Positions 3,288 to 26,845 of a DNA stretch of 64,000 nt are shown piece by piece. The notes beneath the pieces are model-generated. The model did not search any database and was not told the DNA's origin. It saw only the letters and a program-made list of their open reading frames with translations. Every line of letters begins with the position of its first letter. Position 1 is the first letter of the stretch. Both the position numbers and the translations under genes were made by a program. Origin of the DNA: Candidatus Latescibacterota bacterium (GTDB lineage Bacteria; Latescibacterota; UBA2968; UBA8231); assembly GCA_965248355.1 (NCBI GenBank), contig OZ252098.1:1408001-1472000 (forward strand), read 5' to 3'.

Positions 3288-3670
3288 CGTCAAGGGACCA
3301 CCCAGATTCGCGCACCCCGGATTTGGTCGGGGTCGGTGGTACCGGATCGGTTCTCCCCCTCCTGAGATGAGGTGCACCGAGAACGGGGACCTGCACCGCA
3401 AACCCCGGAGCGGCCCCCGGTCCAGCCAGTGACGCTTGGCGAACGAGGGAATGGGTGTGAGGGATGGTCTTGGCCTCCTTCCGCTCCACGTGTCATTCGG
3501 CCAGTTGCTGCTCCATGTCCCGGAGGCCGAAGCTACGGCCATTGATCTGCAGGACATCGCAGTAGTGCAGCAGTCGATCCCAGATGGCCGTGGCCAGACC
3601 CGTCGGCAGCATCTCCGGCCATTGGCGGATGCTCTTCTTGGAGGTGATCGATCAGGGTGCTGGCGCGCTG
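3288..3670 (-). pseudogene. istB: IS21-family remnant: istB C-terminus plus probable right end
   Basis: Minus strand 3670-3493 reads QRASTLI/ITSKKSIRQWPEMLPTGLATAIWDRLLHYCDVLQINGRSFGLRDMEQQLAE* with a frameshift. CGTCAAGGGACCACCCAG at 3288 resembles a degenerate IS21 terminus. Confidence 0.75.
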
Positions 3671-4843
3671 CTAGTGTCATGTCGTAGAAATTACTGTACA
3701 TCTTCATGAGGATGCTGTAGGTTTCTCTTATTCTCTTTCCGAAAGGAGAAACCTATGGCGAGGGGACGACCGTTACCGGCGATAGAGTTGAGTCCGTCGG
3801 ACCGGGACCAATTGGAATCGATGGCCAGATCACGGAGTCTCCCCCACGGGTTGGTGCGCCGAGCCGAGATGGTTCTGCTGGCCGCCGACGGCTGGCCCAA
3901 TCAGGCGGTCGCCGCCGCGGTAGGGGTGACGCGGGCGACTGTGGGCAAGTGGCGGCGACGCTTTCTCGAGGGCGGGCTGCCGGGCTTGCATGATGAGCTG
4001 CGTCCGGGGGCGCCGCGATCGATCACGGATGAGCAGGTCGCCGAGGTGGTCTACAAGACCCTGAAGACCAAGCCCAAGGACGAAACCCAGTGGTCGGTGC
4101 GCTCCATGGGCCAGGAAACCGGCCTGTCCAAGGATGCGGTACATCGCATTTGGCGCACCTATGGTCTGCAACCCCACCGACACAAGCACTTCAAGCTGTC
4201 CACCGATCCCTTCTTCGTGGACAAAGTACGGGATATCGCCGGGTTGTACCTGAATCCCCCGGAGCACGCCATGGTTCTGTGCGTGGACGAGAAGAGCCAG
4301 ATCCAGGCCTTGGAACGAACTCAGCCGATGCTGCCCTTGGGCTTGGGATACGTGGAAGGGGTTACGCACGACTACAAGCGGCACGGCACCACCACCCTGT
4401 TTGCCGCCTTGGACGTGGCCACCGGCGAAGTGATGACCCAGTGCAAATCCCGGCATCGTCACCAGGAATTCCTCCAGTTCCTACGCCACATCGAGACCAA
4501 CGTGCCCGAGGATCTCGATATCCATCTCGTCGTCGACAACTACGCCACCCATAAGCATGCCAAGATCAAGCGATGGCTGGCCAACCGTCCCCGGTTTCAC
4601 GTTCACTACACCCCCACGTATGCTTCGTGGCTCAACCAAGTGGAGATCTGGTTCGGGATCATCACGCGCCAGGCCATTCGGCGCGGGTCGTTTCGGAAGG
4701 TCCCGGAGCTGGTCGAGCGGATCGAACGGTACACCGACAAGTGGAACGCCAAGGCCCGGCCCTTCGTCTGGACGGCGACGGCCGATTCCATCCTCGCCAA
4801 GGTCAAACGACTTTGTGAGCGAATCTCTGCGACATGACACTAG
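3671..4843 (+). mobile_element. IS630-family insertion sequence
   Basis: Terminal IRs CTAGTGTCATGTCGTAGAAATT (3671) and AATCTCTGCGACATGACACTAG (to 4843), with CTAG/TA at both ends. Confidence 0.92.
3755..4837 (+). CDS. IS630-family transposase
   Basis: HTH region, [54 protein letters not shown]. Intact, with RBS AAAGGAG. Confidence 0.95.
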
Positions 4844-6367
4844 CAGTCCGTTGGAAAAAGGCGAGGGATGAGGGAGGTACCAACTCCCCTCGTACGGGTC
4901 CTTTACTAGATTAGGCAGGCCACGTACCCAAGGAGCCGGATCGATGTCGCTGAGCCGACGACCCGAGAGCCAGCAACAGGAGATGTGGGTGCCGACCCAC
5001 ACGCTGCCGGAGGCGCCGGGGTGTCCGTTCTACACGCAACTGATTCAGTTGCTGCTGGCGGCGCATGGGTTTGACCGCTTTGTCGAGTCTCGGTGCGCCC
5101 CGTATTACGCCGAGACGCTGGGCCGGCCGAGCATCGCGCCGGGGGTCTATTTCCGCATGCTCTTGATCGGCTACTTCGAGGGCCTGGGCTCGGAGCGGGG
5201 CATCGCCTGGCGGGTGGCCGACTCGGTGTCGCTGCGCCGTTTTCTGGGCTACGCCCTGAGCGAGGCCACGCCGGATCACTCGAGCCTGACGCGCATTCGT
5301 CAGCGTCTGCCGTCGGAGATCTACCAGGAGGTGTTCAACTGGGTGCTGACCGTGCTGGCCAAGGAGGGGCTTTTGAAGGGCAAGACCCTGGCGGTGGACG
5401 CCACGACCCTGGAGGCCAACGCCGCCCTGCGCAGCGTCGTGCGGCGGGACACCGGGCAAGGCTACCGCGAGTACCTGGAGGACTTGGCCCGGGCCGAAGG
5501 AATCGAGACGCCGACGCGCCAGGACCTGGCCCGGCTCGACAAGAAACGGCCGCGCAAAGGCTCCAACCAGGACTGGAAGCATCCCCGAGGATCCGGAGGC
5601 CCGCATCACCAAGATGAAGGACGGGCGGACCCACCTGGCGCATAAAGCCGAACACGCGGTCGATCTGGACACCCAGGCCTTGGTGGCGGTCCAGGTGACC
5701 GGCGCCGACGAGGGAGACACCTCGTCCCTGTCTTGGACGCTGATCCAGAGCGATCTGAATCTGCAGGCCGTGTCGCAGGATCCGAAAGCCAAGAACCATC
5801 TGCATGGCCAACCGATGTCGGAAGTGGTGACGGACAAAGGGGTATCACAGCAACGACACGACCAAGAGGCTGAAGGGCGCTCAGATTCGCGGCTACCTGT
5901 CCGAGCCCGACCGGGGGCGCCGTCGGTGGAAGGACCGGGCCGCCCAGGCGGCCGTGTATGCCAATCGACGCCGGATTCGAGGGCCCCGGGGCCGCGCCCT
6001 GCAACGGCGTCGAGCCGAATGCGCGGAACGCAGTTTCGCTCACACCTACGAACGCGGGGGGCTGCGACGGACGCACCTGCGGGGCCACGCCAACATCTAC
6101 AAGCGGCTGAGCCTTCATGGCAGCGCCTTCAATCTGGGCTTGGCCATGCGGAAGCTCACCGGCTGCGGGACCCCGAGGGGTCTGCGGGCACTGGGGGCCG
6201 TTTTTTCGGTCTTCAAGGCGGGTTTGCAGGTCGCTCGGGCCCTCTCGCGTCGCGCCGGCGGCCTCTTCCTCACCTGGGTCCGGGATCGATTCCTCATCCG
6301 TTGCCGCCGCCTTCACCCAGAGCGACCGGACGTGATCCAAAACGTGGCTTTCTCAACGGGCTGCTAG
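4840..6367 (+). mobile_element. IS1182/IS5-like insertion sequence
   Basis: IRs CTAGCAGTCCGTTGGAAAAAG (4840) and CTTTCTCAACGGGCTGCTAG (to 6367). The left CTAG is shared with IS630. Confidence 0.85.
4944..6367 (+). pseudogene. Frameshifted DUF772/DDE transposase
   Basis: GRPSIAPGVYFRMLL..SER..TPDHSSL, AVDATTLEANA, DKG/YHS and ERSFAH spread over three frames. Shifts near 5585 (CCCC) and 5840 (GGGG). Confidence 0.85.
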
Positions 6368-12049: not shown

Positions 12050-13030
12050 ATGCACGCCGGCACCCAGCAGTTCAACACCAGCGATCACGATCTCGAGTTC
12101 CTCGCCCGCCACGGGGTGACCGCCAAGAGCGAGAACCACATCACCTTCCACCGGGAGTTCGGGTGGGACGTGAAGGAGCTGATCGAGAAGAAGGAGAAGT
12201 GCGCCCGCTTCGGCGTCGACCTGGAGATGGTGGCCATCCCCGTCCACTCCCTCGGCGTCGACGGCTGCAGCACTCCCAACTACATGCGCGGCCGGTACGA
12301 CGAGGGCGACCAGGAGATCGAGCTGGTCTGCAACATGATCCGCCAGGCCGCCGAAGCCGGCATCCCGGCGGTGAAGTACTTCCTGTGCGAGATGGAGAAC
12401 CAGCGCACCGAGTCGACGCCCCCGGGACGGGGCAACTCACAATACAGCACCTGGAACCTGGAGAAGGCCGACGACTCGCCGCGCTACGACGAGCCGGTCA
12501 CGGCCGAGCAGAACTGGGAGCGCATCACCCATTACCTGGAACGCGTCGTGCCGGTGGCCGAGGAGTGCAAGGTGCGCATGGCCTGCCACCCCTGCGACCC
12601 GTGGCTGCCGCCGGGCTTCAAGGGCGTCGACCGCGTCCTCGGGGGCCCCGAGGGCTTCCGGCGCTTCATCACCATCTGCGAGAGCGACTACCACGGCGTC
12701 AACCTCTGCCTGGGCTGCATGGCCGAGGCCTCCACCGACCCGCGCAACGAGGTGCCGGAGATCATCCGCTACTTCGGGTCGCGCGACAAGATCTTCCTCT
12801 GCCACTTCCGCAACATCGTCGGCGGCCGCAACAAGTTCCAGGAGGTGTGGCCGGACGAGGGCGTCATGAGCATGCACCGCAACATCGGCGCCCTGAATGA
12901 GGTGGGCTATCCGCACATGGTCGTGCCCGACCACGCCCCCGGCCACCCCGACTCCGACGGCTACCAGGCCTGGGCCTACGAGTTCGGCTACATCCAGGCC
13001 ATGATCCAGTCGGTGACCGACGAGGACTGA
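12050..13030 (+). CDS. uxuA: Mannonate dehydratase-family protein
   Basis: LERVVPVAEECKVRMACHPCDP, GVNLCLGC, HFRNI, E.WPDEG, VPDHAP. AGGAG RBS. Confidence 0.8.
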   Translation: MHAGTQQFNTSDHDLEFLARHGVTAKSENHITFHREFGWDVKELIEKKEKCARFGVDLEMVAIPVHSLGVDGCSTPNYMRGRYDEGDQEIELVCNMIRQAAEAGIPAVKYFLCEMENQRTESTPPGRGNSQYSTWNLEKADDSPRYDEPVTAEQNWERITHYLERVVPVAEECKVRMACHPCDPWLPPGFKGVDRVLGGPEGFRRFITICESDYHGVNLCLGCMAEASTDPRNEVPEIIRYFGSRDKIFLCHFRNIVGGRNKFQEVWPDEGVMSMHRNIGALNEVGYPHMVVPDHAPGHPDSDGYQAWAYEFGYIQAMIQSVTDED

Positions 13031-13052
13031 GCGCCCCGAGAGGCGCGGCTCT

Positions 13053-15590
13053 CTACAGAGCCGAGGCGCGCCTCGTCAGCTCGGCCCGGGCCTCGGCGAA
13101 GAGGGCGATCAGCCGCGCCCGCACCTCCTCGTCCCTGAACACGCCGATGCGCTCGGCCCAGGCGACGCCGCCCTCCATGTGGGTGAGCAGGTACTCCCCG
13201 TCGCCCTCCTCGAAGGCGCCCCTCCGGCCGACGTCGACGTAGACCGGCGACGAGTGGGCCATCACCGGCCCGGCGTCGGTGGCGTACGGCCCCCAGCAGC
13301 GGGCGGCGATCCAGCAGGGCTTGCCGCACTCGATCTCCGTCTTCAGGGTGATCGAGCGATCGCCCTCCCCCGCCGTCTCCCGCTCCCGGGGGACGCCGTT
13401 GACCACCAGCTCCACCGCGGTCAGGGGCCAGACGCTCCAGGCCCGGGCCTCCACCTCCACGGTGCCGCCGTTGCCGGGCAGGTCGAGCTGGCCGCCCATG
13501 GGCACGCCGTCGACGCGCAGGTCGATCATGGCGCCGGTGCTGGCGAAGGTCTGACCCGAGCGCACCGCCCGGCACCAGTTGTCGAAGGTGAACTCCCGGC
13601 CCTCGGCGAGGCGGGCATAGGTCCGCGAGCCGCCGAGGATGCGGCCGTTGGACATCTTGTCCGTGCCCCCGACGATGGGCAGCTTCTGGCCCACGTTCAG
13701 CCACCGGTAGTAGCCGCGCTCGCCCTGCCCGATCCGCTCGCCCTCCCAGATCCAGCACATCTCCGCGGCGTCGGCCTGGCCGAGGACGATGTTGGCGGCG
13801 TTCTCGAAGTCGGGGACCGGCATGTGGGGCATGATGACGAGGCCGCCCTGGGCGCGGCACTGCTCCGCCCAGTCCGCCATCAGCGCCTGGATCTCGCCGC
13901 CGACCCAGTCCTCCTGGGGGCCTCCCGTGCACATGGGCGCCACCAGTTCCCGCAGGCCGAGCAGGCTGATGTGGCCGAGCACGTGCTGGCGGTTCTCCTG
14001 GCTCACGTAGACGAGGTGGTTCTCCGTCGACGTGGGCGCCACGCCGCCGGTGAACTCCTCCCAGCTGGTGAACAGCCGCCCCCACTGGCTGGCCAGCAGG
14101 TGCACCACGTTCAGGTCCTCCCCCTCGGCCTCCAGCACGCTCGACTGGGAGGAGAGAAAGTGGACGTGGGTGTCCCCGGACCAGTAGCCCTCGGCCTTCA
14201 TGTCGAAGGCGCGCTGCACGGCCAGGGTCAGGTGCCGCTGCCCGGGCTTGATCTCCAGCTGCCGGCGCGCCGGCTCGTACTCGAAGCCGCGGGCCACCTC
14301 GACGAAGCTGGCCCCCACGGGCAGCTCGATCTGGCAGGTCCCGTCGATGTAGGCGTACGGGGTGCCTCCCGTCTTGCAGTCGCCGCCCATGTCCTCGAAC
14401 CAGGCGATGTTGACGTCGGCCTGGTGGCCGTGGGGGGCGAGGTAGACCCCCTCCTTCGAGCGGAAGTGGACGCGGCAGCCCACCGGGTCCCCCGTGTCGG
14501 CGTCGACGACGCGCACGTGCACCCACTGCCGGCCCTCGCCGTCCACCACCTGGACGCGCACGGGTCCGGACTCGGCCTCGCCCCGCTCCAGGACCTCGCC
14601 CCAGCGGAAGCCGGCGGCCGCCTCCCCCGAGGTCACCTCCAGGTTGGCCAGCGGCGAGCCGTGGACCTCGACCTGGCCTCCCGGGCCGACCTGCTGTCCG
14701 CCGCGGCCCCAGCCGGTCTCGTCGGTGGTCAGGAAGTCCGGGCCGGGAAGGAACAGGTCGTCCTGGCGCGCGATCACCCCCCGGTCCACGCCGACCTCCG
14801 GGGCTTCCTCGCCGCCCTCCACCGTCACCGCCACGGTGCGCCGCGCCTCCCAGTGGAAGGGGTCCTCCTGCTCCTGGCACAGGGTGACGGCGCCGAGGAC
14901 CAGGGGCGTGGGCGTCGCCGCCTCCAGGACCACCTCGGCGATCTCCGCCTCCGGGCTGGGCACGGCCAGGTCGAAGAGCCACCAGCCCGTCAGGTCGCCG
15001 CCCATGGCGCCCGTCCCGCCGGCGGGACGGCCGTCGGCCCGGTCGTAGCGCGAGTACACGCCCACCTGGGAGCCGCCGTACCCGAGGGCCGGCTCGTGGA
15101 GGCCCACGGAGTCGAAGTGCCGGCCGTTGCGGCACAGGAAGGGATGGTGGCCCCAGGGGGCGTTGATGTCGTGGATCTCCCAGCGCCGGCGCAGGGGCTG
15201 CGCGGACTCGGAGCCATCGGCGAAGCGGACGACGTAGCGGCCGAGGGCCTCGCCCGCCCCCTCGAGGGTGGCCCACTCCCCGTCCACGGGAGCGCAGGCG
15301 TGGGCGAAGAGCAGGCGGCGGGCCCGGGCGCCCACGGGGATGACCACCCGCGACTCGGCGGCCTCCCCGGCCGCGGCGACCACGAAGCGCCGCTCGGCGT
15401 CGGCTTTCGCCAGCTGGAAGGGGACGCCGAGGAAGAGGCACTCGCCGGCCGGCAGACCATCCAGAGGCGTGGCGTGCGGATCGTCGCCGGAGTGGGGCCA
15501 CAGCCAGCGCCCGCCGAGATCGATGTTCCCCGTGCCGGCGTTGCAGAGGCTCGTCAGGTCCAGAGGTTGGAAGGAATCGTTCATTGTCAT
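13053..15590 (-). CDS. CehA/McbA-family (PHP-like) metallohydrolase
   Basis: VARGFEYEP, YWSGDTHVH, SQENRQHVLGH, YRWLNVG..PIVGGTD, RTYA, AHSSPVYV. Confidence 0.8.
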   Translation of the reverse strand: MTMNDSFQPLDLTSLCNAGTGNIDLGGRWLWPHSGDDPHATPLDGLPAGECLFLGVPFQLAKADAERRFVVAAAGEAAESRVVIPVGARARRLLFAHACAPVDGEWATLEGAGEALGRYVVRFADGSESAQPLRRRWEIHDINAPWGHHPFLCRNGRHFDSVGLHEPALGYGGSQVGVYSRYDRADGRPAGGTGAMGGDLTGWWLFDLAVPSPEAEIAEVVLEAATPTPLVLGAVTLCQEQEDPFHWEARRTVAVTVEGGEEAPEVGVDRGVIARQDDLFLPGPDFLTTDETGWGRGGQQVGPGGQVEVHGSPLANLEVTSGEAAAGFRWGEVLERGEAESGPVRVQVVDGEGRQWVHVRVVDADTGDPVGCRVHFRSKEGVYLAPHGHQADVNIAWFEDMGGDCKTGGTPYAYIDGTCQIELPVGASFVEVARGFEYEPARRQLEIKPGQRHLTLAVQRAFDMKAEGYWSGDTHVHFLSSQSSVLEAEGEDLNVVHLLASQWGRLFTSWEEFTGGVAPTSTENHLVYVSQENRQHVLGHISLLGLRELVAPMCTGGPQEDWVGGEIQALMADWAEQCRAQGGLVIMPHMPVPDFENAANIVLGQADAAEMCWIWEGERIGQGERGYYRWLNVGQKLPIVGGTDKMSNGRILGGSRTYARLAEGREFTFDNWCRAVRSGQTFASTGAMIDLRVDGVPMGGQLDLPGNGGTVEVEARAWSVWPLTAVELVVNGVPRERETAGEGDRSITLKTEIECGKPCWIAARCWGPYATDAGPVMAHSSPVYVDVGRRGAFEEGDGEYLLTHMEGGVAWAERIGVFRDEEVRARLIALFAEARAELTRRASAL

Positions 15591-15609
15591 CCTTTCGGTT
15601 CGTGCCAGG

Positions 15610-16578
15610 TCATCCGGCTCCGAGCACTCGGGCATAGTGGTCCAGGGACAGGTTGCCGCCGCTGAGCACCCCCACCACCCGCCGTCCCGCCAGCCGCGGG
15701 CCCAGACGCGCCGCCGCCGCCAGGGGCGCCGCGGCCGCTCCCTCGGCCAGGAGCCGGGCGTCGCGGGCGTACCAGCGGATCGCCTCCTCGATCTCCTCGT
15801 CGGTCACGAGGACGAGGTCGTCGAGGTGGCGCCACAGGATCTCCATGGTCATCTCGAAGGGCACGCGCGTGGCCAGGCCCTCGTGGACGGTCCGCATCTC
15901 CGCCTCCACGTCGAGGCGGCGCTCCGACCAGGCCCGCCAGACCGCGGGGGCCGCGGCGGACTGCACGCCGATGACCTCGATCTCCGGGTTGCGGGCCTTG
16001 GCCGCCAGGCAGGTCCCCGCGGCCGCGCTGCCGCCGCCAACGGGCACGAGGATCACCTCCGTCCCGGGCGCGGCCTCGAGGATCTCCACGGCCATGGTGC
16101 CCGCCCCCGCGATCAGCTCGGGCTCGTTGGCCGAGTGCACGTAGCGTCGCCCCTCCCGCCGGGCCACCTCCTCCACCTCGACCCGCGCCTCGTCGAAGTC
16201 GCGGCCGTGGCGGCGCACCTCGGCGCCGAGGCGCTCCATGGCCTCCAGCTTGGCCGGGTTGGCGCCCTCGGCCGGGGCGTAGATCACCACCGAGGCGCCG
16301 AATCTTCCGCCGGCCCAGGCCATGGCCTGGCCGTGGTTGCCGGTGCTGGCGCTGATCAGGCCGCCGGCGAGCTCGGCCTCCGACAGACGCCCTACAAGGT
16401 TGACGGCGCCGCGGACCTTGAAGGCGCCCACGGGCTGGAAGCTCTCGCACTTGACGGCGTAGTCGCAGCCGAGCCGCTTCGACAGGGCCTCGCTGCCGAT
16501 CAGGGGCGTGGGCGCCAGGTGCTCCTTCAGGAAGGACCTGGCCGCGTCCACGTCGGCCGCCGTGGGAAGCCGGGTCAT
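15610..16578 (-). CDS. PLP-dependent threonine/serine dehydratase-family protein
   Basis: KCESFQPVGAFKVRGA, ASTGNHGQ, VPVGGGS, VLSGGN. Confidence 0.92.
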   Translation of the reverse strand: MTRLPTAADVDAARSFLKEHLAPTPLIGSEALSKRLGCDYAVKCESFQPVGAFKVRGAVNLVGRLSEAELAGGLISASTGNHGQAMAWAGGRFGASVVIYAPAEGANPAKLEAMERLGAEVRRHGRDFDEARVEVEEVARREGRRYVHSANEPELIAGAGTMAVEILEAAPGTEVILVPVGGGSAAAGTCLAAKARNPEIEVIGVQSAAAPAVWRAWSERRLDVEAEMRTVHEGLATRVPFEMTMEILWRHLDDLVLVTDEEIEEAIRWYARDARLLAEGAAAAPLAAAARLGPRLAGRRVVGVLSGGNLSLDHYARVLGAG

Positions 16579-17354
16579 GGCCGGTGCTCCCGGACCGCGG
16601 CCAGGGCTTCGGCCAGGTGGCGGCGGTAGAGGTCCAGGTCGAGGCCGACGGCGAGGATGCGGTAGCCCTTGTCGAGCAGCTCGCGAGCCTCCTCCGCGGT
16701 GGCGGCGAGGCGGCCCAGGGCCTTGCCCTCGGCCTCGCAGGCGCGGCGCACTTCCTCCTCGGCGGCCAGGTAGTCGGGGTGGTCGAAGAGGCCCGGGCGG
16801 CCGCTGAAGTTGGCCAGGTCGAACTGGCCGATCCAGAGGACGTCGATCCCCTTCACGGCGGCGATCTCCGGGGCGTTCCGGACCCCCCAGGGGCTCTCGA
16901 TCTGGGCGATCACGAGGGTGCGCTCGTCGGCCTGGCGCATCTTCTCTTCCAGCGCCTCGTCGGCGCGGTAGTCGTCGTGGGCGACGCCGAAGGCGGCTCC
17001 CCGGCGTCCGGCCATGGGGTAGCGGCAGAACCCGGCCAGGCGCCGGGCCTGGTCGGCGTCGTCGACCATGGGCGCCATGACGCCGAGGGCGCCGGCGTCG
17101 AGGACCCGCGCCGCGAAGTGGTACTCGGCGGCCGGGATGCGCACGAAGGGCACCGCGCCGGTCCCGCCGCAGGTGGCCACGAGGCCGCGGATCGTCTCCA
17201 TCGACCAGGCCGTGTGCTCCATGTCGAAGAGCACGAACTCGGCGCCGGCGTTGTCGGCGAGGCGGGCCACGCCGGTGGTCCCGAACTCCATCACCATGGT
17301 GCCGAAGGACCGGCCGCCCTCCAGCAGGCGGCGCTTGACGGGGTTCTCTCTCAC
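16575..17354 (-). CDS. HpcH/HpaI aldolase-family protein
   Basis: FDMEH, VRIP, LDAGALGVMAPMV, AQIES, GIDVLWIGQFDL. GTG overlaps the upstream stop. Confidence 0.9.
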   Translation of the reverse strand: MRENPVKRRLLEGGRSFGTMVMEFGTTGVARLADNAGAEFVLFDMEHTAWSMETIRGLVATCGGTGAVPFVRIPAAEYHFAARVLDAGALGVMAPMVDDADQARRLAGFCRYPMAGRRGAAFGVAHDDYRADEALEEKMRQADERTLVIAQIESPWGVRNAPEIAAVKGIDVLWIGQFDLANFSGRPGLFDHPDYLAAEEEVRRACEAEGKALGRLAATAEEARELLDKGYRILAVGLDLDLYRRHLAEALAAVREHRP

Positions 17355-18397
17355 TCGCCCCTCCGGCGGCGGGCGCAGGCCGCCAGCTTCGCGCGGAACG
17401 GTTCCGCCTCCAGCACCTCGCCGTTGACCACGTGGCCGGGGGCGCGTCCCTCGGAGACGGCGAGGATGCCGGCGAAGGCGCTCTCCCCCATCATGCGGAA
17501 GCTCTCGTCCGTCCAGGCCAGGGAGTGGGGCGCCAGGATCACGTTGTCGAGCAGGAGCAGGGGATCGCGAGGATCGACGGGTTCCTCCTCGAAGACGTCG
17601 AGGGCGGCGCCGGCGATGGCGCCCTGCCCCAGGGCCGCGGTCAGCGCCGCCTGATCGACGATGGGCCCGCGGGCGACGTTGATCAAGTGGGCCGTCGGCT
17701 TCATCCGGTCCAGCTCCGCGGCGCCGATGAGGTGGCGGGTCTCCGGGGTCAGGGCACAGCAGATGAGGACGAAGTCGGCCTCCCTGAGCAAGTCCGCCAA
17801 CGACACCAGCCGCGCCCCCAGCCCGGCGGCGGCCTGCTCGTCGGCGAAGGGATCGGCGGCCAGCAGGGTCATCTCGAAGGGCGCGCACAGCCGGCAGACC
17901 TCGCGGCCGATGTTGCCCAGCCCCACCACGCCGAGGGTGCGCCCCCGCAGGCCGAGGCCCATGTGGTCGACCCTCTCCGGCCAGCGCCCTTCGCGGGTGA
18001 GCCGGTCCTTGGCCGGCAGCCGGTGGGCCAGGGCCAGGAGGAAGGCCATGGCGGCGCTGGCCACGGGACGCCGTACGCCGTCGGGGGTGATGGTCAGGGC
18101 CACCCCGGCGCGCGTGCAGGCGTCCACGTCCACCGAGTCGTAACCGACCCCGATGCGGGCCACCACCGCCAGCCGGCCGGCGTCCGCCAGGGTTGCCGCC
18201 GAGATCCTCGGGGCCAGGACGAGCAGGGCGTCGCAGTCGGCGACGGCCTCGGCCGGCACCTCGTCGGCGCCCTCCTCGAGGCAGTGCCACTCGACGCCCT
18301 CGGTCCGGTCCAGCGGGGAGAGGTCGATATCGGGAAAGGCCTGGCGGCCGTCGGGCCGCAGGAAGTCCATGGTGAGACCGACGCGAAACATCCTCAT
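17351..18397 (-). CDS. D-isomer-specific 2-hydroxyacid dehydrogenase (SerA-like)
   Basis: ARIGVGYDSVD, GVVGLGNIG, LINVARGPIVD, AALDVFEEEP, ILAPH. Confidence 0.92.
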   Translation of the reverse strand: MRMFRVGLTMDFLRPDGRQAFPDIDLSPLDRTEGVEWHCLEEGADEVPAEAVADCDALLVLAPRISAATLADAGRLAVVARIGVGYDSVDVDACTRAGVALTITPDGVRRPVASAAMAFLLALAHRLPAKDRLTREGRWPERVDHMGLGLRGRTLGVVGLGNIGREVCRLCAPFEMTLLAADPFADEQAAAGLGARLVSLADLLREADFVLICCALTPETRHLIGAAELDRMKPTAHLINVARGPIVDQAALTAALGQGAIAGAALDVFEEEPVDPRDPLLLLDNVILAPHSLAWTDESFRMMGESAFAGILAVSEGRAPGHVVNGEVLEAEPFRAKLAACARRRRGE

Positions 18398-19134
18398 CCT
18401 CCTCCGGAACGGATTCGGGCCTCGGCCTCGCCCAGGGCCGCGGCGTTGTCCCAGGCGGCGATCAGATCGGCCCGGGCCCGCTCGGTTTCCCCGCCGAGGC
18501 GCCCTGCTTCGGCGACGAGGGCCGGCAGGGCGCGGACGACGTTGTCCACGATGGTCACCGTGGCGGCGCGGGCCGTGCGCGACAGCGGGTTCAGGTCGAC
18601 GGTCAGGACCTGGCGGCCCATGCGGCGCAGGGCCTCGCAGCGGTCGCCGTCCTCGAGGGGGACGAAGATCACGTCCGCCTCGAGCAGTCCCTCGGGGTGC
18701 ACGTGGCGGCGGTTCGAGTCGAGCCCCTCGAGGGCGGTCCCGGCCTCGGGCAGCAGGACACGCTCGGCGCCGTGGGCCTCCAGGTGGGCGGCGATGGCGC
18801 GCTCCCGCTCGCGGGAGCCGTGGAAGATGTTGACCTCGAGGGGAGCCCCGGTGAGCCGGGAGAGCCGCACCAGCTCCCCGGGGACCAGGGCGGCGGCGTT
18901 GCCGTTCACCGAGAGCACCGGTTGGCCGGCGGCCAGCAGCCAGGCCGCCGCCGCTTCGCAGGCGCGCCGGGCCCAGGGTCCGCTGCGCTCGCCCAAGAGG
19001 TAGTCGCAGGCCTCGCCGCGGCCGTGGGCGATCAGCCCGTGAGGCGAGGTGATGCCCGCCTCGACGCCGGCCACGATCAGGTCCCGCGTGAGCAGGGAGG
19101 CGCGGCGCGGATGGCTCTCGGGGACGTCGGTCAC
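18394..19134 (-). CDS. Archaeal-type 4-phosphopantoate--beta-alanine ligase (phosphopantothenate synthetase, PPS)
   Basis: VPESHPRRASL, GLIAHGRGEACDYLLGERS, PVLSVNGNAAAL, VPLEDGDRCEAL, VDLNPLSRTA, TIVDNVVRA. Confidence 0.92.
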   Translation of the reverse strand: MTDVPESHPRRASLLTRDLIVAGVEAGITSPHGLIAHGRGEACDYLLGERSGPWARRACEAAAAWLLAAGQPVLSVNGNAAALVPGELVRLSRLTGAPLEVNIFHGSRERERAIAAHLEAHGAERVLLPEAGTALEGLDSNRRHVHPEGLLEADVIFVPLEDGDRCEALRRMGRQVLTVDLNPLSRTARAATVTIVDNVVRALPALVAEAGRLGGETERARADLIAAWDNAAALGEAEARIRSGGG

Positions 19135-19976
19135 GGCTCGATGAGCCCGACGCGGCGGGTCGACAGGGCGGTCTCGGTGGAGCCCGGGAAGGGGACGTCG
19201 CTGAAGACGGCGTTGCCGAGCATGATCATGGAGGCTTGGCCGCCGCGCCGGGTCACCTCGTCGACGGCGGCGCGCACCCCTTCGTGGGCCATGAGGCCGC
19301 TGCCGGACGCGAAGGCCCGGGACTCGCGGATGACGCTGCCCAGGTCCAGGGACGGCGCCTCGCGGAGACCCCCCAAGGCGGCCAGGGCCGAGTCGGCGGC
19401 GGCGTTGATCCGCCGGCGGCGCTCCGGGTCGGAGAGGATGTCCCGCGTGCGGATGGGGCCGAAGTGCCGGTAGTGGATGGAGGCCCCGGGGGCCAGGGGC
19501 ATGCGCTGGGCCGCGAGGGGGTCTCCGGCGACGAGCTTCACCAGGCAGCCGCCGTGGTACTGGGCGCAGACATCCCCCAGGCCGGTGAGGTTCTCCACCT
19601 CGGCCACGTGGGCGGCGGTGGCCAGGGCGCGCTCGGACAGCCCCAGGTCGAGCAGGGCGTTGGCCGCGTAGGCCGCGGCCAGCGAAGAAGCTCCGCTGAG
19701 GCCGAAGCCGCTGCTCAGGGGCAGGGGCGTCTCGACGTCGACGGCCAGCCGCTGCCCGGGCGCGACCCGCTCCAGCACGGCCGCCACCGTGGGGAACTCG
19801 ATCTCCTCGCCGTTGAAGGTGATGCCGCCGCCCCCGCGGCGGACCGAGACGGTGGCCCCCTCGCGCACGGTGAAGCCGAGGCCGAGGGAGTGCATCCGCG
19901 CCGGGTCCTCGTGGGGGATCACCTTGAAGACGCCGGAGATGTTTCCCGGCGCGAAGGCGGCCGCCGCCTCAGCCAT
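19131..19976 (-). CDS. Archaeal-type pantoate kinase (GHMP kinase, PoK)
   Basis: AFAPGNISGVF, SLGLG, PLPLSSGFGLSGA, AHVAEVENLTGLGDV, SMIMLGNAVF. Adjacent to PPS. Confidence 0.88.
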   Translation of the reverse strand: MAEAAAAFAPGNISGVFKVIPHEDPARMHSLGLGFTVREGATVSVRRGGGGITFNGEEIEFPTVAAVLERVAPGQRLAVDVETPLPLSSGFGLSGASSLAAAYAANALLDLGLSERALATAAHVAEVENLTGLGDVCAQYHGGCLVKLVAGDPLAAQRMPLAPGASIHYRHFGPIRTRDILSDPERRRRINAAADSALAALGGLREAPSLDLGSVIRESRAFASGSGLMAHEGVRAAVDEVTRRGGQASMIMLGNAVFSDVPFPGSTETALSTRRVGLIEP

Positions 19977-20658
19977 GGACGGCCTCCGGCGCCAGCCGCT
20001 GCGCCTGCAGCCAGCCCGGCAACCGGGCGACTCCGTCGAGCAGGGCCAGGGGCGCGTAGGGGGCGAAGGCCGGAGCCCCGGTGGTGCCGCTGAGGACGGC
20101 CACGAAGCGGATCGCCCCCCGCCGCGCCGCCTCGGCGTCGGGAAGGCTGTCCCCCACGTAGAGGGACTCGGCGGCGTCGACCTGGAGACGGTCCAGGGCC
20201 AGGTGCAGGCAGCCGGGATCCGGCTTGTGCTCGGAGACGTCCTCGGCCCCGATCACGGCCCCCACGAGGTGACGCAACCCCTCCCGGTCGAGGATCCCCT
20301 CGATGCGGTAACGGTACTTGGTGGAGGCGATGGCGCAGGCCAGGCCCCGGGAGCGCAGTTCCTCCAGCACGCCGGGGACGGCGTCGTAGACCACGGTGCC
20401 CGCGGCCATGACCTGGTCGGCGCGCTCGAGGAAGAGCCTTCCGAACTCGACGCTGCGCCCCCGCTCCGCCTCGCCGTTGAGTGCGGCCAGGATGTTGGGT
20501 ACGGAAAGGCCGATGGTGCGCCGGATCTCCTCCTCCCCGGACAGGTCGAGGCCCATGCGCCGCTGGGCATAACGCACGCAGTCGATGACGCCCACGGAGG
20601 AGTCCGCCAGGGTGTAGTCGAAGTCGAAGAGGACCGCCTTGAGCGGCGTCAGGCCCAT
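19969..20658 (-). CDS. HAD-family phosphatase
   Basis: VLFDFDYTLADS, IASTK, KPDP, YVGDSLPD. Confidence 0.9.
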   Translation of the reverse strand: MGLTPLKAVLFDFDYTLADSSVGVIDCVRYAQRRMGLDLSGEEEIRRTIGLSVPNILAALNGEAERGRSVEFGRLFLERADQVMAAGTVVYDAVPGVLEELRSRGLACAIASTKYRYRIEGILDREGLRHLVGAVIGAEDVSEHKPDPGCLHLALDRLQVDAAESLYVGDSLPDAEAARRGAIRFVAVLSGTTGAPAFAPYAPLALLDGVARLPGWLQAQRLAPEAVHG

Positions 20659-20663
20659 GCCGG

Positions 20664-21476
20664 TCACGCTTCGGCCGGCGAGGCCGTGGCCCCCGCCTGG
20701 GCGCCGGCGTTCACCCCCAGCCCGCGGCGGTAGGCCTCCAGGGGCAGCAGATCCTCGGGGCCCACGTTGCCGATGTTGGCCTGGGGGCCGAAGCGGTCGA
20801 TCAGGTCCCGGCGCATGCTGTGCACGTGATGCTCGCTCACCCCGGCGATCCACGGGCCGGGCAGCTCGAACATCACCTTCTCCAGGCCAACGGAGTCGAC
20901 GATCCCGTCGATGTCGGCCGCCGTCCCCGCGTCGCCGCGGATCAGCTCCGCCGCCTCCACCAGAAGCAGGCTGGCTCCCGCCTCCATGCACGCCCTGGCG
21001 TCGTCGGCCAGGGGTACGGCGTTGGCCAAGCCTTCCTTCTTGCCCACCTCCCCGAGGACCTTCAGCCCGAACTCCTCTACCGCCCGGACGATGACCCGCT
21101 CCTTCCACCGCAGCGTCACCGGGGCCAGGTTGTCCGAGACCTCCACCCAGCGGTAGCCGGCCTCGACACAGGCCGGGAGGTAGCGTTCCAGGAGGCCGTG
21201 GACCTCGGCGTACTCCAGGAACTGCCCCCCGGGGAAGGGCTCCACGTGCCACGACAGGTAGCGGTCGATCTTCTCCGTCAGCAGCTTCGCCGGGTGCAGC
21301 CGCGAGAGCCCCACGGCGATCTTGGCGAAGTCGAAGCAGTCGGCCCCGACCGCGATCAGGTCCCGCTGCCGGTGCGGCCCGAGGCCCCAGTCGATGACCA
21401 TTGTCAGCCCCGAGGCGCGCGGCTTGGCGGTGCGCTCCGGGGCCAGATGTCCGTCGAGTCCGTCGAAGGGATGCAC
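20664..21476 (-). CDS. comA: Phosphosulfolactate synthase (ComA)-family protein, divergent
   Basis: KPRASGLTMVID, PGGQFLE, VEVSD, EVGKK, MFELP, FGPQANIGNV, LEAYRRGL. Confidence 0.82.
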   Translation of the reverse strand: MHPFDGLDGHLAPERTAKPRASGLTMVIDWGLGPHRQRDLIAVGADCFDFAKIAVGLSRLHPAKLLTEKIDRYLSWHVEPFPGGQFLEYAEVHGLLERYLPACVEAGYRWVEVSDNLAPVTLRWKERVIVRAVEEFGLKVLGEVGKKEGLANAVPLADDARACMEAGASLLLVEAAELIRGDAGTAADIDGIVDSVGLEKVMFELPGPWIAGVSEHHVHSMRRDLIDRFGPQANIGNVGPEDLLPLEAYRRGLGVNAGAQAGATASPAEA

Positions 21477-21640
21477 TTCGCGGTCCTTCGTGGTGGGTTT
21501 GGAAGCGCGCTAACCTACGAAAAGGCCCCCTACTCCGTCACGGCACTTGCCGCGTTCCCCCGAGGCCCGCGATGTTTCTGACCGCCGCGGGCGACCGAGA
21601 GCCCGCCGGCCGGTTCCGGTCCGAGTAGGAATGACCATCC

Positions 21641-24600
21641 ATGGAAACAGGCTCTACTCTCCCATGTCTCTCGCTGGACCTCGAGGTCGGAAAGCAGGAC
21701 CGTCGCATCCATGCGTTCGCCGCGATCCGATCGGATACCGACGACCGCCTCGTCTTCAACGGCGGTAACCTCGCCGCAGAACTGGCAAGACTGGACGATC
21801 TCGCGCACGGTGCCGACTTCCTGCTGGGCCACAACCTGGTCCTCTTCGACCTGCCGCATCTGAAAGCCGCGAAACCCAACCTCCGGCTGTTGCGGTTGCC
21901 GGCGGTGGATACGCTGTGGCTCAATCCCCTCGCCTTTCCGCGTAACCCCTATCACGGTTTGGTCAAGCATTACCAGGACGGACAACTCAAGCGAGGGCGG
22001 CTGAACGATCCCGAACTCGATGCCCGGCTCGCGCTCGACGTCTTTCGTGACCAATGGCGCGCTCTCGGCTCCGCTTCACCGGATCTCTTGCTCGCGTGGC
22101 ATTGGTTGACAACGGCGGGCGATATCGGGGACGGCTTCGACAGATTCTTCTCCTCGCTGCGTGAGTCTCCCCGGCCCTCGGACGCGGAAGCCCGCGCGGC
22201 GATAGAGGGACGGTTGGCGGACAGCGCCTGCCGGACCCACGGGCGCGAGGCCACGACAGATCCGGCCCTCTTTGGCTGGGCGCTGGCCTACGCCCTCGCC
22301 TGGCTTTCGGTGGCCGGTGGCAACTCTGTCATGCCGCCGTGGGTACGCCACCAATTCCCCGAGGCGGGACGACTGGTTAGCCGGCTGCGGGATACAGCTT
22401 GTGGAGACTCCGCCTGCGTGTGGTGCCGGGAGCGGCATGACGCCCGCAGGGAACTCTCCCGCTGGTTCGGCTTCAACGGCTTCCGTCCCGAACCTTCGAG
22501 CGCGGACGGAAGCCCGATGCAGCAGTCCATCGTTGAAGCGGCGATGGCCGGGGAGCACGTCCTCGGGATCCTTCCCACCGGCACCGGAAAGTCGCTCTGC
22601 TACCAGATCCCGGCTCTTTCGCGTTACGACAAGACCGGCGCCCTTACAGTGGTGATCTCACCCCTGGTCGCGCTCATGGCGGACCAGGTGGCGGGACTGG
22701 AAGCACACGGCATCGGGTCGTGTGTCGCCATTAACGGCCTTCTGTCCATGCCCGAGCGGGCCGATGCGCTGGACCGGGTGCGGCTCGGAGACGCCGGACT
22801 GGTGCTCGTCTCGCCCGAGCAGCTGCGCAGCCAGTCCTTCCGCCGCGTGCTGAACCAGCGCGAGATCGGCGCCTGGGTCATGGACGAAGCCCACTGCCTG
22901 TCGCGATGGGGGCACGACTTCCGACCCGACTACCGCTACGTGGGGCGCTTCATACGCGAGAAGGCGGGATCGGGGCCTGTCCCGCCGGTGTTGTGCCTCA
23001 CCGCGACCGCGAAGCCCGATGTCGTCGAGGACATCGCCCGGTACTTCCGAGACTCCATCGGAGCGGAGCTCACAGTCTTCGACGGCGGAGCCCAGCGCAC
23101 GAACCTCGAGTTCGTGGTGGTTCCGACCACCGGTGGCGAAAAGTTTTCTCACATCCACCAGATCCTGATGGCTGACCTGCCCCAGGACACGCCCGGCGGT
23201 GCCATCGTCTACTGTGCGACCCGGCGTCAGACCGAAGAGGTGGCGGAGTTTCTGCAGATGAAGGAGATCGCGGCGGACCACTTCCACGCGGGTCTGCCGC
23301 CCGAGACCAAGAAGAGCGTCCAGCTACGCTTCATCGCGGGCGAGCTCCGGGTGATCGCCGCCACCAATGCCTTCGGCATGGGCATCGACAAGCCGGACGT
23401 GCGGCTGGTGATCCACGCCGACATCCCGGGCTCGCTCGAGAACTACCTGCAGGAGGCGGGGCGCGCCGGGCGGGACCGGGAGACCGCGCGCTGTGTGCTG
23501 TTGTACTCGACGGACGACGTCGAGCGCCAGTTCGGGATGTCCGCCCGGTCGCGCCTCACGCGCCGGGAAATCCACGGCATCCTGCGGGCGCTCCGGAACC
23601 TCGACCGGAAGAAGCGTCTGAAGGGCGAGGTGGTTGCCACCGCGGGCGAGATCCTCCTGGAGGAGGACGAGAAGGTATTCGAGCGGGACTCAGCCACCGA
23701 CGATACCCGGGTGCGGACCGCCATCGCCTGGTTGGAGGAGGCGGTGCTGCTCACCCGTGAGGAGAACGAGGTGCGGGTGTTTCCCTCGTCCCTTCGGGTG
23801 AGTTCGGTGGAAGAAGCCCGAGCCAAGATCGAGAGCTCGCCCATTGCGGACGCCTACCGCCACCAGTTCCAGCTCATCGCTGAGAAGCTGATCGACGCCG
23901 ACCCGGACGAAGGCATCTCCACCGATGAGCTGATGGGCGTGTCTGGCTTGAGCCCCGAAGGTGTACGCGCCGCCCTCTACGACCTGGAGCGCCTCGGCAT
24001 CGCGAGGAACGAAACGGCGCTCACCGCCTTCGTCCATACCGGGGTGGAGAGAAGCTCGCTGAAGCGTCTTGACGAGGCGGAGAGTCTTGAGAAGGCATTG
24101 ATCGAGCACCTCCGTCTTGCTGCGCCGGACATGGGTAAGGGTGAGTCCTGGGCTCTGCATTTACGAGTCGCGTCGCAGGTTCTGCGAGATGCTGGGGTTG
24201 TCGATCCTCTTCCCGAGCGGCTATGGCGCATTCTTCGCAGCATTGCCGCTGACGGCCGCGGCGAGGGGGGCGGCTCTGGGAGCCTCGGGATCCGGAAGCG
24301 CGATGCGGAGACCGTGCAGGTAACACTGCAACGCGACTGGCAAGCCCTGGAGGAGACCGCATCGCGGCGCCGTGCGGGGTCGAGACGCCTGCTGGAACAC
24401 CTGCTCGCCGGCCTGTCGCCTGGGAGCCGGGGCACGGATCTCCTGGCCGAGACCACCCTGGGAGAGCTCATGGGCGCGCTAATGTCCGACTTGCTCCTCA
24501 AGAGCAGGCTCAAGAGTCCTGAGAAACTGCTGGACCGAGCTCTCCTGTGGCTGCACGAGCAGGAGGTCATCCGCCTCCACAAGGGTCTCGCGGTCTTTCG

Positions 24601-26845
24601 CCCCGCCATGACCATCCGGCTCACGGACGAGAAGCCGGGGCGGGGATTCGCCACGGCCGACTTCGAGCCGCTCAGACTGCACTACGAGGGGCAGGTTCGG
24701 CAAATCCACGTCATGGTGGAATTCGCGCGGCGGGGTCTGGAGGCCATGGCGGAGGCGCTTCGTCTGGCCATGGAATACTTCGGCATGAACGAGGAGGAAT
24801 TCCTGCACCGCTGGCTTCCGGAACGGAGTCGAGAGATCGCCCGCGAGACCACCCCGGAATCGTGGCGGACCATCGTCGAGAGCCTCAAGAACCCCGTCCA
24901 ACAGCGGATCGTTGCGGATGATCGAGAGCAGACGAACGTGCTGGTTCTCGCCGGTCCTGGTTCAGGAAAAACGCGGGTGCTGGTGCATCGCATCGCCTAC
25001 CTGGTGCGGGCCAGACGCGAGAATCCCCGCGGCATCCTGGCCCTTGCCTACAACCGGCACGCGGCGGTGGAAATTCGGCGGCGCATCTTGGGATTGATCG
25101 GTGATGAAGCCCGGGGGGTGACCGTGCTCACGTGCCATGCGCTGGCCATGCGACTGGTGGGAGCCAGCTTCCAAGAGCGAGAACGGCGGCGGCTCGACGA
25201 CGATGCATTCCGGGAGGTGTTGCGCCAGGCAGTAGCACTGCTGCGCGGCGAGGGGCTGGAACCGGAGGAAGCGGACGAACAGCGAGAACGACTTCTTGCG
25301 GGCTTCCGCTGGATCCTTGTGGACGAATACCAGGACATCGCTGCGGATCAGTACGAGTTGATATCGGCCCTGGCCGGACGGACTCAGAGAGATGAGGATC
25401 GCAAGCTCACCCTCTTTGCAGTAGGGGACGACGACCAGAACATCTACGCCTTCAATGGCGCGTCGGTCGAGTTCATCCGCCGCTTCGAAGCGGACTACGG
25501 TCCGAAGCCCACCTACTTGACCGACAACTACCGCTCCACCGGCCACATCATCGCTGCGGCCAATGCATTGATCGAGCCGGCGCGCGAACGGATGAAGACC
25601 GGATATCCCATCTGCATAGATCGGCCTCGTGCGAAGAACCCACCGGGCGGCGACTGGCGGGAACTGGACTCGGTCGCTCAAGGCCGTGTGCAGGTTCTAC
25701 CAGCGCTACACGATCCGATCATACAAGCGCAGGTTGCGATCACGGAGTTGCAACGCCTCGCTACCCTAGCTCCCGACTGGGACTGGTCCAGGTGCGGGGT
25801 CGTCGCGCGGGAATGGAAGTACCTCGATCCGGTACGTGCATTCTGCGAAGTAAATGGTCTTCCGGTCCAGATGGGAAACGAAGACATCCCGAGCTTCTGG
25901 CTCCTGCGAGACACCCGGACGATGGTCGAATGGCTGCGTGGACGGGATACCTCCTTGGTGAACAGCCCCGACCTCCGTGATTGGGTGAATGCACGTCCTT
26001 CAGGACCCTGGGTCGAGCTTCTTCAGGAGGCTCTGGATGAACATGAGCTTGAAACCGGAGCAGGTGCGGAAGTGAGGGTGGACCCCTTCATCGAGTGGCT
26101 GGCCGAGTGGGGCCGGGAACTTCGTCGCCGCCAGCGCGGGCTCCTGCTGTTGACCGCACATCGCGCCAAGGGATTGGAGTTCGACCACGCGGCCGTGCTT
26201 GACGGAGGCTGGAACAAGATCGACGTCGACAAGGGGGAGGACGAGGACGCGCCAAGACGGCTCTACTACGTGGCCATGACCCGCGCCCGGAAGACCCTTG
26301 CTCTGATTCGATTTCCCGGGCCGCATCGGCTGCTTGATGAATTGCAGGGCAATCCCTCGGTGCTGCAACGAGACGCCGGGTGGCCTGACTTCGCGAGGGA
26401 ACCTGAGGCCCCGGCGTATTCGGGGCGATCACGCCCGCACCACGCCCCTGGCGGCTTGCTGCCGGAAACCCTGGAACTCGCGCGTCAATATCGACGGCCG
26501 GGCCTGCGCAGGGTCGATCTGGGATTCGCGGGGCGTCTTCGGCCCAACCATCCGGTGCATCGTGCGATCTCCGCCCTGTCGTCCGGCGATAAGCTGGAGA
26601 CACGCGTGACCGAGGCGGGACGTTGGGAATTGCTCGACCTCTCAGGAAGGGTGGTGGGGCGCCTTGCCCGTGACTTCAAACCCCCACCGGGAACGCAGTG
26701 CAGGTCCGCAACAGTTCTGGCCATCATGTCCTGGAGCCGTGACCTGTCGGACTCAAAATACCACGACAGCATACCGTGCGATTCCTGGGAGGTCGTGGTG
26801 CCGGAGTTGGTGTTCGAACCAGTGGCGAGCAACCCGGAAGGTTGA
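21641..26845 (+). CDS. Large helicase: exonuclease-like N-terminus + RecQ (SF2) + UvrD/Rep (SF1)
   Basis: N-terminus LSLDLEV..LLGHNLVLFDLPHL. RecQ motifs LPTGTGKS, DEAH, WGHDFRPDY, ATNAFGMGID, QEAGRAGRD. UvrD motifs AGPGSGKT, LVDEYQD, VGDDDQ, NYRS, HRAKGLEFD, YVAMTRA. Confidence 0.92.
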   Translation: METGSTLPCLSLDLEVGKQDRRIHAFAAIRSDTDDRLVFNGGNLAAELARLDDLAHGADFLLGHNLVLFDLPHLKAAKPNLRLLRLPAVDTLWLNPLAFPRNPYHGLVKHYQDGQLKRGRLNDPELDARLALDVFRDQWRALGSASPDLLLAWHWLTTAGDIGDGFDRFFSSLRESPRPSDAEARAAIEGRLADSACRTHGREATTDPALFGWALAYALAWLSVAGGNSVMPPWVRHQFPEAGRLVSRLRDTACGDSACVWCRERHDARRELSRWFGFNGFRPEPSSADGSPMQQSIVEAAMAGEHVLGILPTGTGKSLCYQIPALSRYDKTGALTVVISPLVALMADQVAGLEAHGIGSCVAINGLLSMPERADALDRVRLGDAGLVLVSPEQLRSQSFRRVLNQREIGAWVMDEAHCLSRWGHDFRPDYRYVGRFIREKAGSGPVPPVLCLTATAKPDVVEDIARYFRDSIGAELTVFDGGAQRTNLEFVVVPTTGGEKFSHIHQILMADLPQDTPGGAIVYCATRRQTEEVAEFLQMKEIAADHFHAGLPPETKKSVQLRFIAGELRVIAATNAFGMGIDKPDVRLVIHADIPGSLENYLQEAGRAGRDRETARCVLLYSTDDVERQFGMSARSRLTRREIHGILRALRNLDRKKRLKGEVVATAGEILLEEDEKVFERDSATDDTRVRTAIAWLEEAVLLTREENEVRVFPSSLRVSSVEEARAKIESSPIADAYRHQFQLIAEKLIDADPDEGISTDELMGVSGLSPEGVRAALYDLERLGIARNETALTAFVHTGVERSSLKRLDEAESLEKALIEHLRLAAPDMGKGESWALHLRVASQVLRDAGVVDPLPERLWRILRSIAADGRGEGGGSGSLGIRKRDAETVQVTLQRDWQALEETASRRRAGSRRLLEHLLAGLSPGSRGTDLLAETTLGELMGALMSDLLLKSRLKSPEKLLDRALLWLHEQEVIRLHKGLAVFRPAMTIRLTDEKPGRGFATADFEPLRLHYEGQVRQIHVMVEFARRGLEAMAEALRLAMEYFGMNEEEFLHRWLPERSREIARETTPESWRTIVESLKNPVQQRIVADDREQTNVLVLAGPGSGKTRVLVHRIAYLVRARRENPRGILALAYNRHAAVEIRRRILGLIGDEARGVTVLTCHALAMRLVGASFQERERRRLDDDAFREVLRQAVALLRGEGLEPEEADEQRERLLAGFRWILVDEYQDIAADQYELISALAGRTQRDEDRKLTLFAVGDDDQNIYAFNGASVEFIRRFEADYGPKPTYLTDNYRSTGHIIAAANALIEPARERMKTGYPICIDRPRAKNPPGGDWRELDSVAQGRVQVLPALHDPIIQAQVAITELQRLATLAPDWDWSRCGVVAREWKYLDPVRAFCEVNGLPVQMGNEDIPSFWLLRDTRTMVEWLRGRDTSLVNSPDLRDWVNARPSGPWVELLQEALDEHELETGAGAEVRVDPFIEWLAEWGRELRRRQRGLLLLTAHRAKGLEFDHAAVLDGGWNKIDVDKGEDEDAPRRLYYVAMTRARKTLALIRFPGPHRLLDELQGNPSVLQRDAGWPDFAREPEAPAYSGRSRPHHAPGGLLPETLELARQYRRPGLRRVDLGFAGRLRPNHPVHRAISALSSGDKLETRVTEAGRWELLDLSGRVVGRLARDFKPPPGTQCRSATVLAIMSWSRDLSDSKYHDSIPCDSWEVVVPELVFEPVASNPEG

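Follow-up and report, generated by a model that had tools for sequence, protein, structure and literature searches.

What is an archaeal-type pair of genes for coenzyme A (CoA) biosynthesis doing in a bacterial genome? In archaea, pantoate kinase (PoK) phosphorylates pantoate and phosphopantothenate synthetase (PPS) then carries out the ligation, as laid out in the accessible parts of PMC6650551 and PMC7883664. The order of these steps has been proposed as a marker that separates bacteria from archaea, with a published exception that the same parts of PMC7883664 tie to sponge symbiosis. A preliminary description of the window (by which we mean the whole 64-kb stretch of DNA analyzed) claimed that both archaeal-type genes are present here and record an old cross-domain transfer that replaced the bacterial route. 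Are the two genes sound, has the bacterial route really gone, and where did the pair come from?

The gene pair and its surroundings

The pair sits within a run of genes on one strand:

20664..21476, minus strand: ComA (phosphosulfolactate synthase)-like gene, which opens the run; matches PF02679, with TIGR03849 below cut-off
19969..20652, minus strand: HAD-family phosphatase, whose stop overlaps the PoK start
19131..19976, minus strand: pantoate kinase (PoK), GHMP-kinase fold, 281 amino acids; ATG start, no internal stops
19131..19134, minus strand: 4-bp GTGA stop/start overlap, PoK stop plus PPS start
18394..19134, minus strand: phosphopantothenate synthetase (PPS, 4-phosphopantoate--beta-alanine ligase), 246 amino acids; GTG start, no internal stops
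17351..18397, minus strand: D-2-hydroxyacid dehydrogenase, whose ATG overlaps the PPS stop (ATGA)
16575..17354, minus strand: HpcH/HpaI aldolase family gene
15610..16578, minus strand: PLP-dependent (PALP) threonine dehydratase-like gene, often near PPS in the host family

The PPS protein scores 218.5 bits against PF02006 (cut-off 26.4), covering positions 1-175 of the 176-position profile, and 318 bits against NF010324, above the cut-off of 227; its 287 bits against NF041123 fall slightly below the cut-off of 300. It is matched by Thermococcus PPS 3wdk at E 7e-63 and retains 32 of the 32 columns that are invariant across 25 diverse family representatives. In PoK, a GHMP_kinases_N domain is detected and the two top NCBIfam models are both for pantoate kinase (E 1e-41 and 2e-18). 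The PoK scores lie under the cut-offs of these models (143 bits versus 380 for NF040725; 67 versus 500 for NF041122), which are named for particular archaeal groups and the first of which reaches its cut-off in none of the four archaeal control genomes that give a match. Against PDB sequences, phmmer returns 6jbc as the best match (E 3e-13; runner-up, E 3e-4), and the predicted PoK model (pLDDT 95) has Thermococcus PoK 6jbc as its top Foldseek match (E 2e-21, TM 0.83), followed by a homoserine kinase (E 3e-14, TM 0.71). The Thermococcus PoK residues that we take to be functionally important are S28, S104, H131, E134, D143, R155, and T186; when the window PoK is aligned with 6jbc, S30, S94, H123, E126, D135, and T177 are identical and K147 is a conservative change. 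Among 49 aligned homologues (bacterial and Woesearchaeota), the putative active-site residues S30, S94, H123, D135, K147, and T177 are found in every one and E126 in 48.

These profile, sequence, and fold matches, the reading frames free of internal stops, and the shared GTGA bear out the description of two intact archaeal-type genes with a 4-bp overlap, and the overlap suggests that translation of PoK and PPS may be coupled. Codon usage is host-like, as had also been stated: among 2210 genome ORFs selected heuristically, codon adaptation places PoK at the 93rd and PPS at the 81st percentile. An Rfam scan of the 64-kb window matched nothing, and a promoter/terminator scan of positions 12900-21800 returned zero promoters and one terminator-like site, which is the chance level. 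As candidate expression evidence we considered an RNA run from a sponge metagenome (word share 0.06), which yields a 1007-nt contig, ∼92% like the window, across the PoK-PPS junction; we set it aside, as depth is found in all bins and contigs cannot show transcription.

The surrounding genome is bacterial and not archaeal. It is a single 5.50-Mb contig (68.9% GC, 95.7% complete, 4.2% contaminated) that carries one bacterial 16S gene and bacterial rpoB. Is the contig chimeric at the pair? Identical gene order is found in the separate assemblies L003, L005, L007, L009, and L010, which says that it is not, and contigs from public runs span the HAD-PoK, PoK-PPS, and PPS-dehydrogenase junctions. 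The nearest loci of the same order encode PPS proteins 70-91% identical to that of the window and have record titles of Ca. Latescibacterota or Gemmatimonadaceae; according to the accessible parts of PMC10581226, Gemmatimonadota-labelled genomes were later re-classified to Latescibacterota and related phyla, which makes Latescibacterota the probable phylum of the host.

Loss of the bacterial route

Does the host retain the bacterial enzymes elsewhere, a check that the preliminary description had proposed? Profile searches of the host genome found no PanC, CoaX, or CoaA (controls match in 9/14, 7/14, and 10/14 genomes, respectively), and tblastn queries taken from relatives (three PanC proteins and four of the CoaX family) returned nothing below E 0.3. 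In five genomes besides the host, CoaA gave two weak matches, both below cut-off, and the type II PanK family PF03630 matched in none of five genomes, with control genomes equally lacking a match. The former locations of panC and coaX can be traced through relatives. In G113, G133, G156, and G093, panC lies after folK and faces an FlgD-domain gene; coaX lies between M23 and S41 peptidase genes in G113, G133, and G094, and in G156 it again lies before that S41 peptidase gene. Both sites are empty in the host: at about C1:5003750, folK directly abuts the stop of the FlgD-domain gene, and the M23 and S41 peptidase starts are 155 bp apart (C1:1314187-1314342). Because the flanks are kept and the genes between them are not, the absence of panC and coaX reflects deletion and not an assembly gap.

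The steps on either side are present, namely PanB, CoaBC, CoaD, and CoaE (bacterial) and IlvC; a PanE/ApbA-type reductase, searched for with ApbA_C, was not found in the host. In other words, the host has the features of an archaeal-order route (PoK and PPS present, PanC, CoaX, and CoaA not found, flanking steps present). A full archaeal CoA pathway was not found: the host has no archaeal-type aspartate decarboxylase and no ApbA_C match, and its CoaE is bacterial, so only the PoK-PPS module is archaeal-type.

Proposed pathway

We consider it very probable, from gene content and homology, that PoK and PPS form the only recognizable route from pantoate to 4'-phosphopantothenate in this host, and that the steps run in archaeal order. 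PanB would convert ketoisovalerate to ketopantoate, which is probably reduced by IlvC, following precedent cited in the accessible parts of PMC7883664. PoK, judging from its Thermococcus homologues, would convert D-pantoate and ATP to 4-phosphopantoate, and PPS, on the same grounds, would join 4-phosphopantoate to beta-alanine to yield 4'-phosphopantothenate. The PPS reaction is AMP-forming. The bacterial CoaBC, CoaD, and CoaE would then complete coenzyme A.

Where might the beta-alanine come from? PanD was searched for in the host and not found; the only PF00282 gene resembles the aromatic-amino-acid-decarboxylase type and is frameshifted; motif searches for a beta-alanine source revealed no PreA and no M20 carbamoylase motif; and the three class III aminotransferases besides ArgD reached no specific named function. 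A link between PanD loss and the swap was rejected: PanD matched in 4 of the 76 genomes of the family, and in the two large genera with PanC all 39 genomes lack it. The missing beta-alanine source is a family-wide gap that is not tied to the swap.

Distribution of the two routes

A search of 168 genomes of the phylum found PPS in 33, PoK in 32, PanC in 125, and CoaX in 130. Within the host family (76 genomes), 32 genomes spanning 14 genera have PoK and PPS without PanC or CoaX, and another 43, from four other genera, have CoaX in every case and PanC in 40, without PoK or PPS; all four are missing from the remaining genome, G157, in which a contig break falls two genes short of the expected site. 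In the 92 genomes from other families of the phylum, PanC was found in 85, CoaX in 87, PoK in none, and PPS in one (G031). Kin are not independent, and genome counts such as these are therefore a pattern and not a statistical test. The division of the family (32/76 versus 43/76) argues for an inherited replacement and not contamination. That the bacterial route was replaced, as first proposed, is thus upheld by the failure to find PanC, CoaX, and CoaA, by the empty ancestral sites, and by the mutual exclusion of the two routes across the family.

Beyond the phylum, a scan of species genomes gave 201 PPS relatives, of which the best 80 were kept; PoK lies inside the retrieved locus in 42 of these best 80. 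The genomes behind 47 of the best 80 loci (by title, 31 Poribacteria, 6 Gammaproteobacteria, 6 Woesearchaeota/Nanoarchaeota, 1 Verrucomicrobiales, and 3 other bacteria) have PoK in all 47 cases and PanC and CoaX in none. The six gammaproteobacterial carriers all come from a single order, in which 11 of 53 genomes have PPS, and 8 of 301 sampled Nanoarchaeota genomes have it (the unpublished G458 counted among the eight). Neither the 168 genomes of the phylum nor 48 genomes of the PPS-locus set include one with both complete routes, and PPS had no match in plasmid and phage collections. Additionally, a locus titled groundwater Latescibacterota (L028) has the pair and similar neighbors, and its label argues against a trait confined to sponges.

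Neighboring genes and alternative readings

The pair is surrounded by catabolic-looking genes and is distant from the remaining CoA genes. Among 33 family neighborhoods, a ComA-like gene is near the pair in 8, a PALP gene in 9, and an aldolase gene in 8; the D-2-hydroxyacid dehydrogenase adjoins PPS in 4 of the 33 (with an ORF filter applied) and, by tblastn, also in the window-like loci L003-L010. Could the dehydrogenase be the ketopantoate reductase? This assignment is unsupported, because the gene is confined to few loci. The ComA-like gene was rejected as a co-acquired partner: 24 of the 76 family genomes have such a gene, and 5 of these are PanC/CoaX genomes. We read the neighbors as the site of insertion.

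A different reading of the same neighborhood is that the pair and its neighbors serve another pathway (for example, that of a sulfonate or other 2-hydroxy acid) and that CoA precursors come from elsewhere. The genes from the ComA-like to the PALP gene do form a tightly overlapping run on one strand, and the recurrence of ComA-like, PALP, and aldolase genes near the pair also speaks for it. Yet neighbors of this kind are unseen by the pair in Poribacteria, gammaproteobacterial, and Woesearchaeota loci; a Woesearchaeota-type locus (L037) instead groups the pair with panB and coaBC; ComA-like genes are found in PanC/CoaX genomes too; and the mutual exclusion of PoK/PPS and PanC/CoaX is a prediction of the CoA role. 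We regard this other pathway as very unlikely. Less credible still is an artefact, whether archaeal DNA assembled into a bacterial contig or panC and coaX missing through incompleteness. The assembly is of metagenome type, with the completeness and contamination given above and at least one frameshift elsewhere, but it is a single contig in which the ancestral sites are present and empty, separate assemblies share the gene order, public-run contigs bridge the junctions, the pattern is common to 32 genomes, and the codons are host-like. The empty sites and the family-wide pattern refute the artefact, to which we assign next to no probability.

Evolutionary history

When and from where did the pair arrive? 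In an RpoBC tree of 41 rows, the PoK/PPS genera form one clade (SH-aLRT 89) with one change of state; in a careful RpoBC tree of 29 rows, this clade has support of only 41/24. The simplest interpretation is that the replacement happened once, although support for such a single origin is weak. Within the host subclade, the PoK tree tracks RpoBC, uniting the host genus with g15 and g18 (99/91 versus 100/100) and adding g7, g9, and g10 next in both trees, a match that indicates vertical inheritance. Given this match and host-adapted genes, the event is old. We propose that an ancestor of part of the family gained the pair from an inferred donor, that panC and coaX would have been cleanly deleted, and that vertical descent would have followed.

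The PPS trees (87 rows under LG+G4; 70 rows under C20 in a quick run, long or redundant rows dropped) include five rows with other record titles that were assigned to the host family, and their archaeal sampling is thin, with few labelled representatives. Sequences of Latescibacterota, Poribacteria, Gammaproteobacteria, and Verrucomicrobiales and one Planctomycetota-labelled protein cluster together (93 and 83), and this bacterial cluster joins Woesearchaeota (99), nested in a wider, thinly labelled archaeal diversity. Monophyly of the Latescibacterota sequences is marginally rejected for the concatenated genes (p 0.038), Woesearchaeota monophyly is not rejected (p 0.67), and a grouping with a clade containing Methanosarcinales, Woesearchaeota excluded, narrowly survives (p 0.061). 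Woesearchaeota may therefore be sisters and not donors. The marginal rejection of Latescibacterota monophyly, together with a clade in the PoK tree (98/90), is consistent with onward transfer of the pair to the gammaproteobacterial order. Two further proposals were set aside. A gift of the pair from Latescibacterota to Poribacteria appears in the concatenated tree (95), but the AU test does not reject the alternative (p 0.67) and the PoK tree instead has Poribacteria basal; free trees suggest that the G031 PPS arose separately, which the AU test does not establish (p 0.17). Of the cross-domain transfer originally described, the replacement and its age stand; the immediate donor may or may not have been an archaeon, since the closest homologues beyond the family belong to bacteria and the transfer could have run either way.

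One scenario, which we offer tentatively and at less than even confidence, is that Woesearchaeota-related PoK and PPS entered bacteria once and then crossed phyla, replacing panC and coaX, with the Latescibacterota family as a hub that would have given the pair to the gammaproteobacterial order and possibly to sponge Poribacteria. Another history, plausible though somewhat doubtful in our estimation, keeps the same enzymes and is compatible with the CoA mechanism: both routes coexisted near the root of the family, with differential loss afterwards, or bacteria handed the pair among themselves, with Woesearchaeota copies as sisters or even recipients. It gains from a family base that RpoBC does not firmly resolve, from the rarity of PPS in sampled Nanoarchaeota, and from the two AU results of p 0.67, which do not reject Woesearchaeota monophyly or a position of Poribacteria outside Latescibacterota plus Gammaproteobacteria. 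It is opposed by both best RpoBC trees, which unite the PoK/PPS genera, by the failure to find a genome with both complete routes in either genome set, and by the placement of the bacterial and Woesearchaeota PPS clade within wider archaeal diversity. If the entry of the pair into bacteria and its passage through a Latescibacterota hub did occur, the swap would not depend on sponge symbiosis.

Implications

With the swap now in another phylum, a clean natural case of non-orthologous pathway displacement is at hand, clean because close relatives retain the bacterial genes at traceable sites. For annotation, such genomes should not be counted as lacking vitamin B5/CoA synthesis. Carriers would also be without the usual pantothenate salvage, being unable to use the usual kinase for it, and without that kinase as a feedback point, which is relevant to how vitamin exchange in these communities is modelled. 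The chemistry of the PoK/PPS route is already known, and the surprise is moderate. A full-text search, with most subscription literature outside its coverage, returned no paper on the swap in Latescibacterota or Gammaproteobacteria. The swap itself is already published (PMC7883664), and what is new is the Latescibacterota lineage, the empty panC and coaX sites, and the groundwater-labelled carrier.

Comparison with known systems

The earlier bacterial cases that the preliminary description mentioned are real: sponge Ca. Poribacteria (Entoporibacteria) made the same swap, tied to symbiosis (Thomes and Lescure 2020, PMC7883664, accessible parts). There, as here, PoK and PPS replace PanC and type III PanK while relatives keep the bacterial route, and CoaE is bacterial, IlvC is present, and no classical ketopantoate reductase is described in those parts of the paper. 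Poribacteria PPS proteins are 54-62% identical to that of the window, and the PoK proteins form one clade (98/99). Poribacteria are, however, a different phylum, and what the available sections of PMC7883664 treat as a sponge-symbiont trait has a groundwater-labelled carrier here. The pair is adjacent in Latescibacterota; in many Poribacteria loci, by contrast, PPS has no PoK next to it. Additionally, these sections put the enzymes near Euryarchaeota, whereas the nearest archaeal relatives here are Woesearchaeota; a term search of the accessible supplement found no 'Woese' or 'Latescibact'.

The characterized Thermococcus enzymes, PoK (6jbc/6jbd) and PPS (3wdk-3wdm, 4mb0/4mb2), belong to the same families and share the fold and conserved aligned residues, although the window PoK is only ∼24-30% identical to Thermococcus PoK and has Lys for Arg155. 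Woesearchaeota are the nearest archaeal branch to the window PPS in the trees (99), and PoK and PPS are adjacent in five of six Woesearchaeota/Nanoarchaeota loci (L037, L040, L055, L061-L063), as in the window. A Woesearchaeota pair can adjoin panB and coaBC (L037), whereas the window pair is remote from the rest of the CoA genes.

PPS outside the window's family

One member of the Latescibacterota outside the window's family, G031, carries PPS beside a different kinase:

L083:5739-7305 (G031:C45), PPS, with a type III pantothenate kinase of divergent sequence 26 bp after it

The kinase matches PF03309 at 63 bits, and searches of the G031 genome, which is 96% complete, found no PoK, PanC or CoaA. 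Judged from sequence, PPS and the type III pantothenate kinase constitute a predicted hybrid route; free trees place the G031 PPS outside the window's PPS clade, but the AU test does not establish this separation (p 0.17).

PPS also occurs in one gammaproteobacterial order, where 11 of 53 genomes carry it (L047, L054, L056, L058, L073 and L074 are among these loci); all six carriers examined have PoK, and none of the six has PanC or CoaX. A genome titled as Verrucomicrobiales has a PPS with its own surroundings:

L049 and L143, PPS flanked by D-Ala-D-Ala carboxypeptidase and alanine racemase

This genome gave no match to PanC or CoaX, and its PoK is long-branched and lies on a contig other than that of PPS. 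Additionally, PPS is found fused to PanB in proteins of 521-529 aa (P0011, P0018 and the cluster member P0166); one cluster member carries the label Ca. Bathyarchaeia.

Beta-alanine and decarboxylase genes

Matches to PanD are found in just 4 of the 76 genomes of the window's family, regardless of the route used. The window's genome, G000, contains a split decarboxylase gene:

G000:C1:4703008-4704112, PLP-dependent group II decarboxylase, reading frame broken across two frames

The break may reflect either a sequencing error or a pseudogene.

Genomic surroundings of PoK-PPS

Three genes of the window deserve mention:

13053-15635, CehA/McbA-family metallohydrolase, 860 aa, without a Pfam match
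20664-21476, divergent ComA-like protein (TIGR03849, 156 bits against a cut-off of 280)
21641-26845, RecQ-like fusion, 1734 aa, with DEAD/Helicase_C and UvrD-type helicase domains

The helicase fusion gene, possibly a more recent acquisition, has low codon adaptation (10th percentile) and lies in a stretch of lower GC; elsewhere, positions 1-5000 and 45000-48000, at a GC of 0.54-0.61 versus 0.69 for the genome, are possibly islands. The metallohydrolase and ComA-like genes are each close to PoK-PPS in several genera. Phosphosulfolactate may not be the product of the window's ComA-like protein, as far as its residues indicate: it has DWG and EAAE in place of the expected motifs DKG and EARE.
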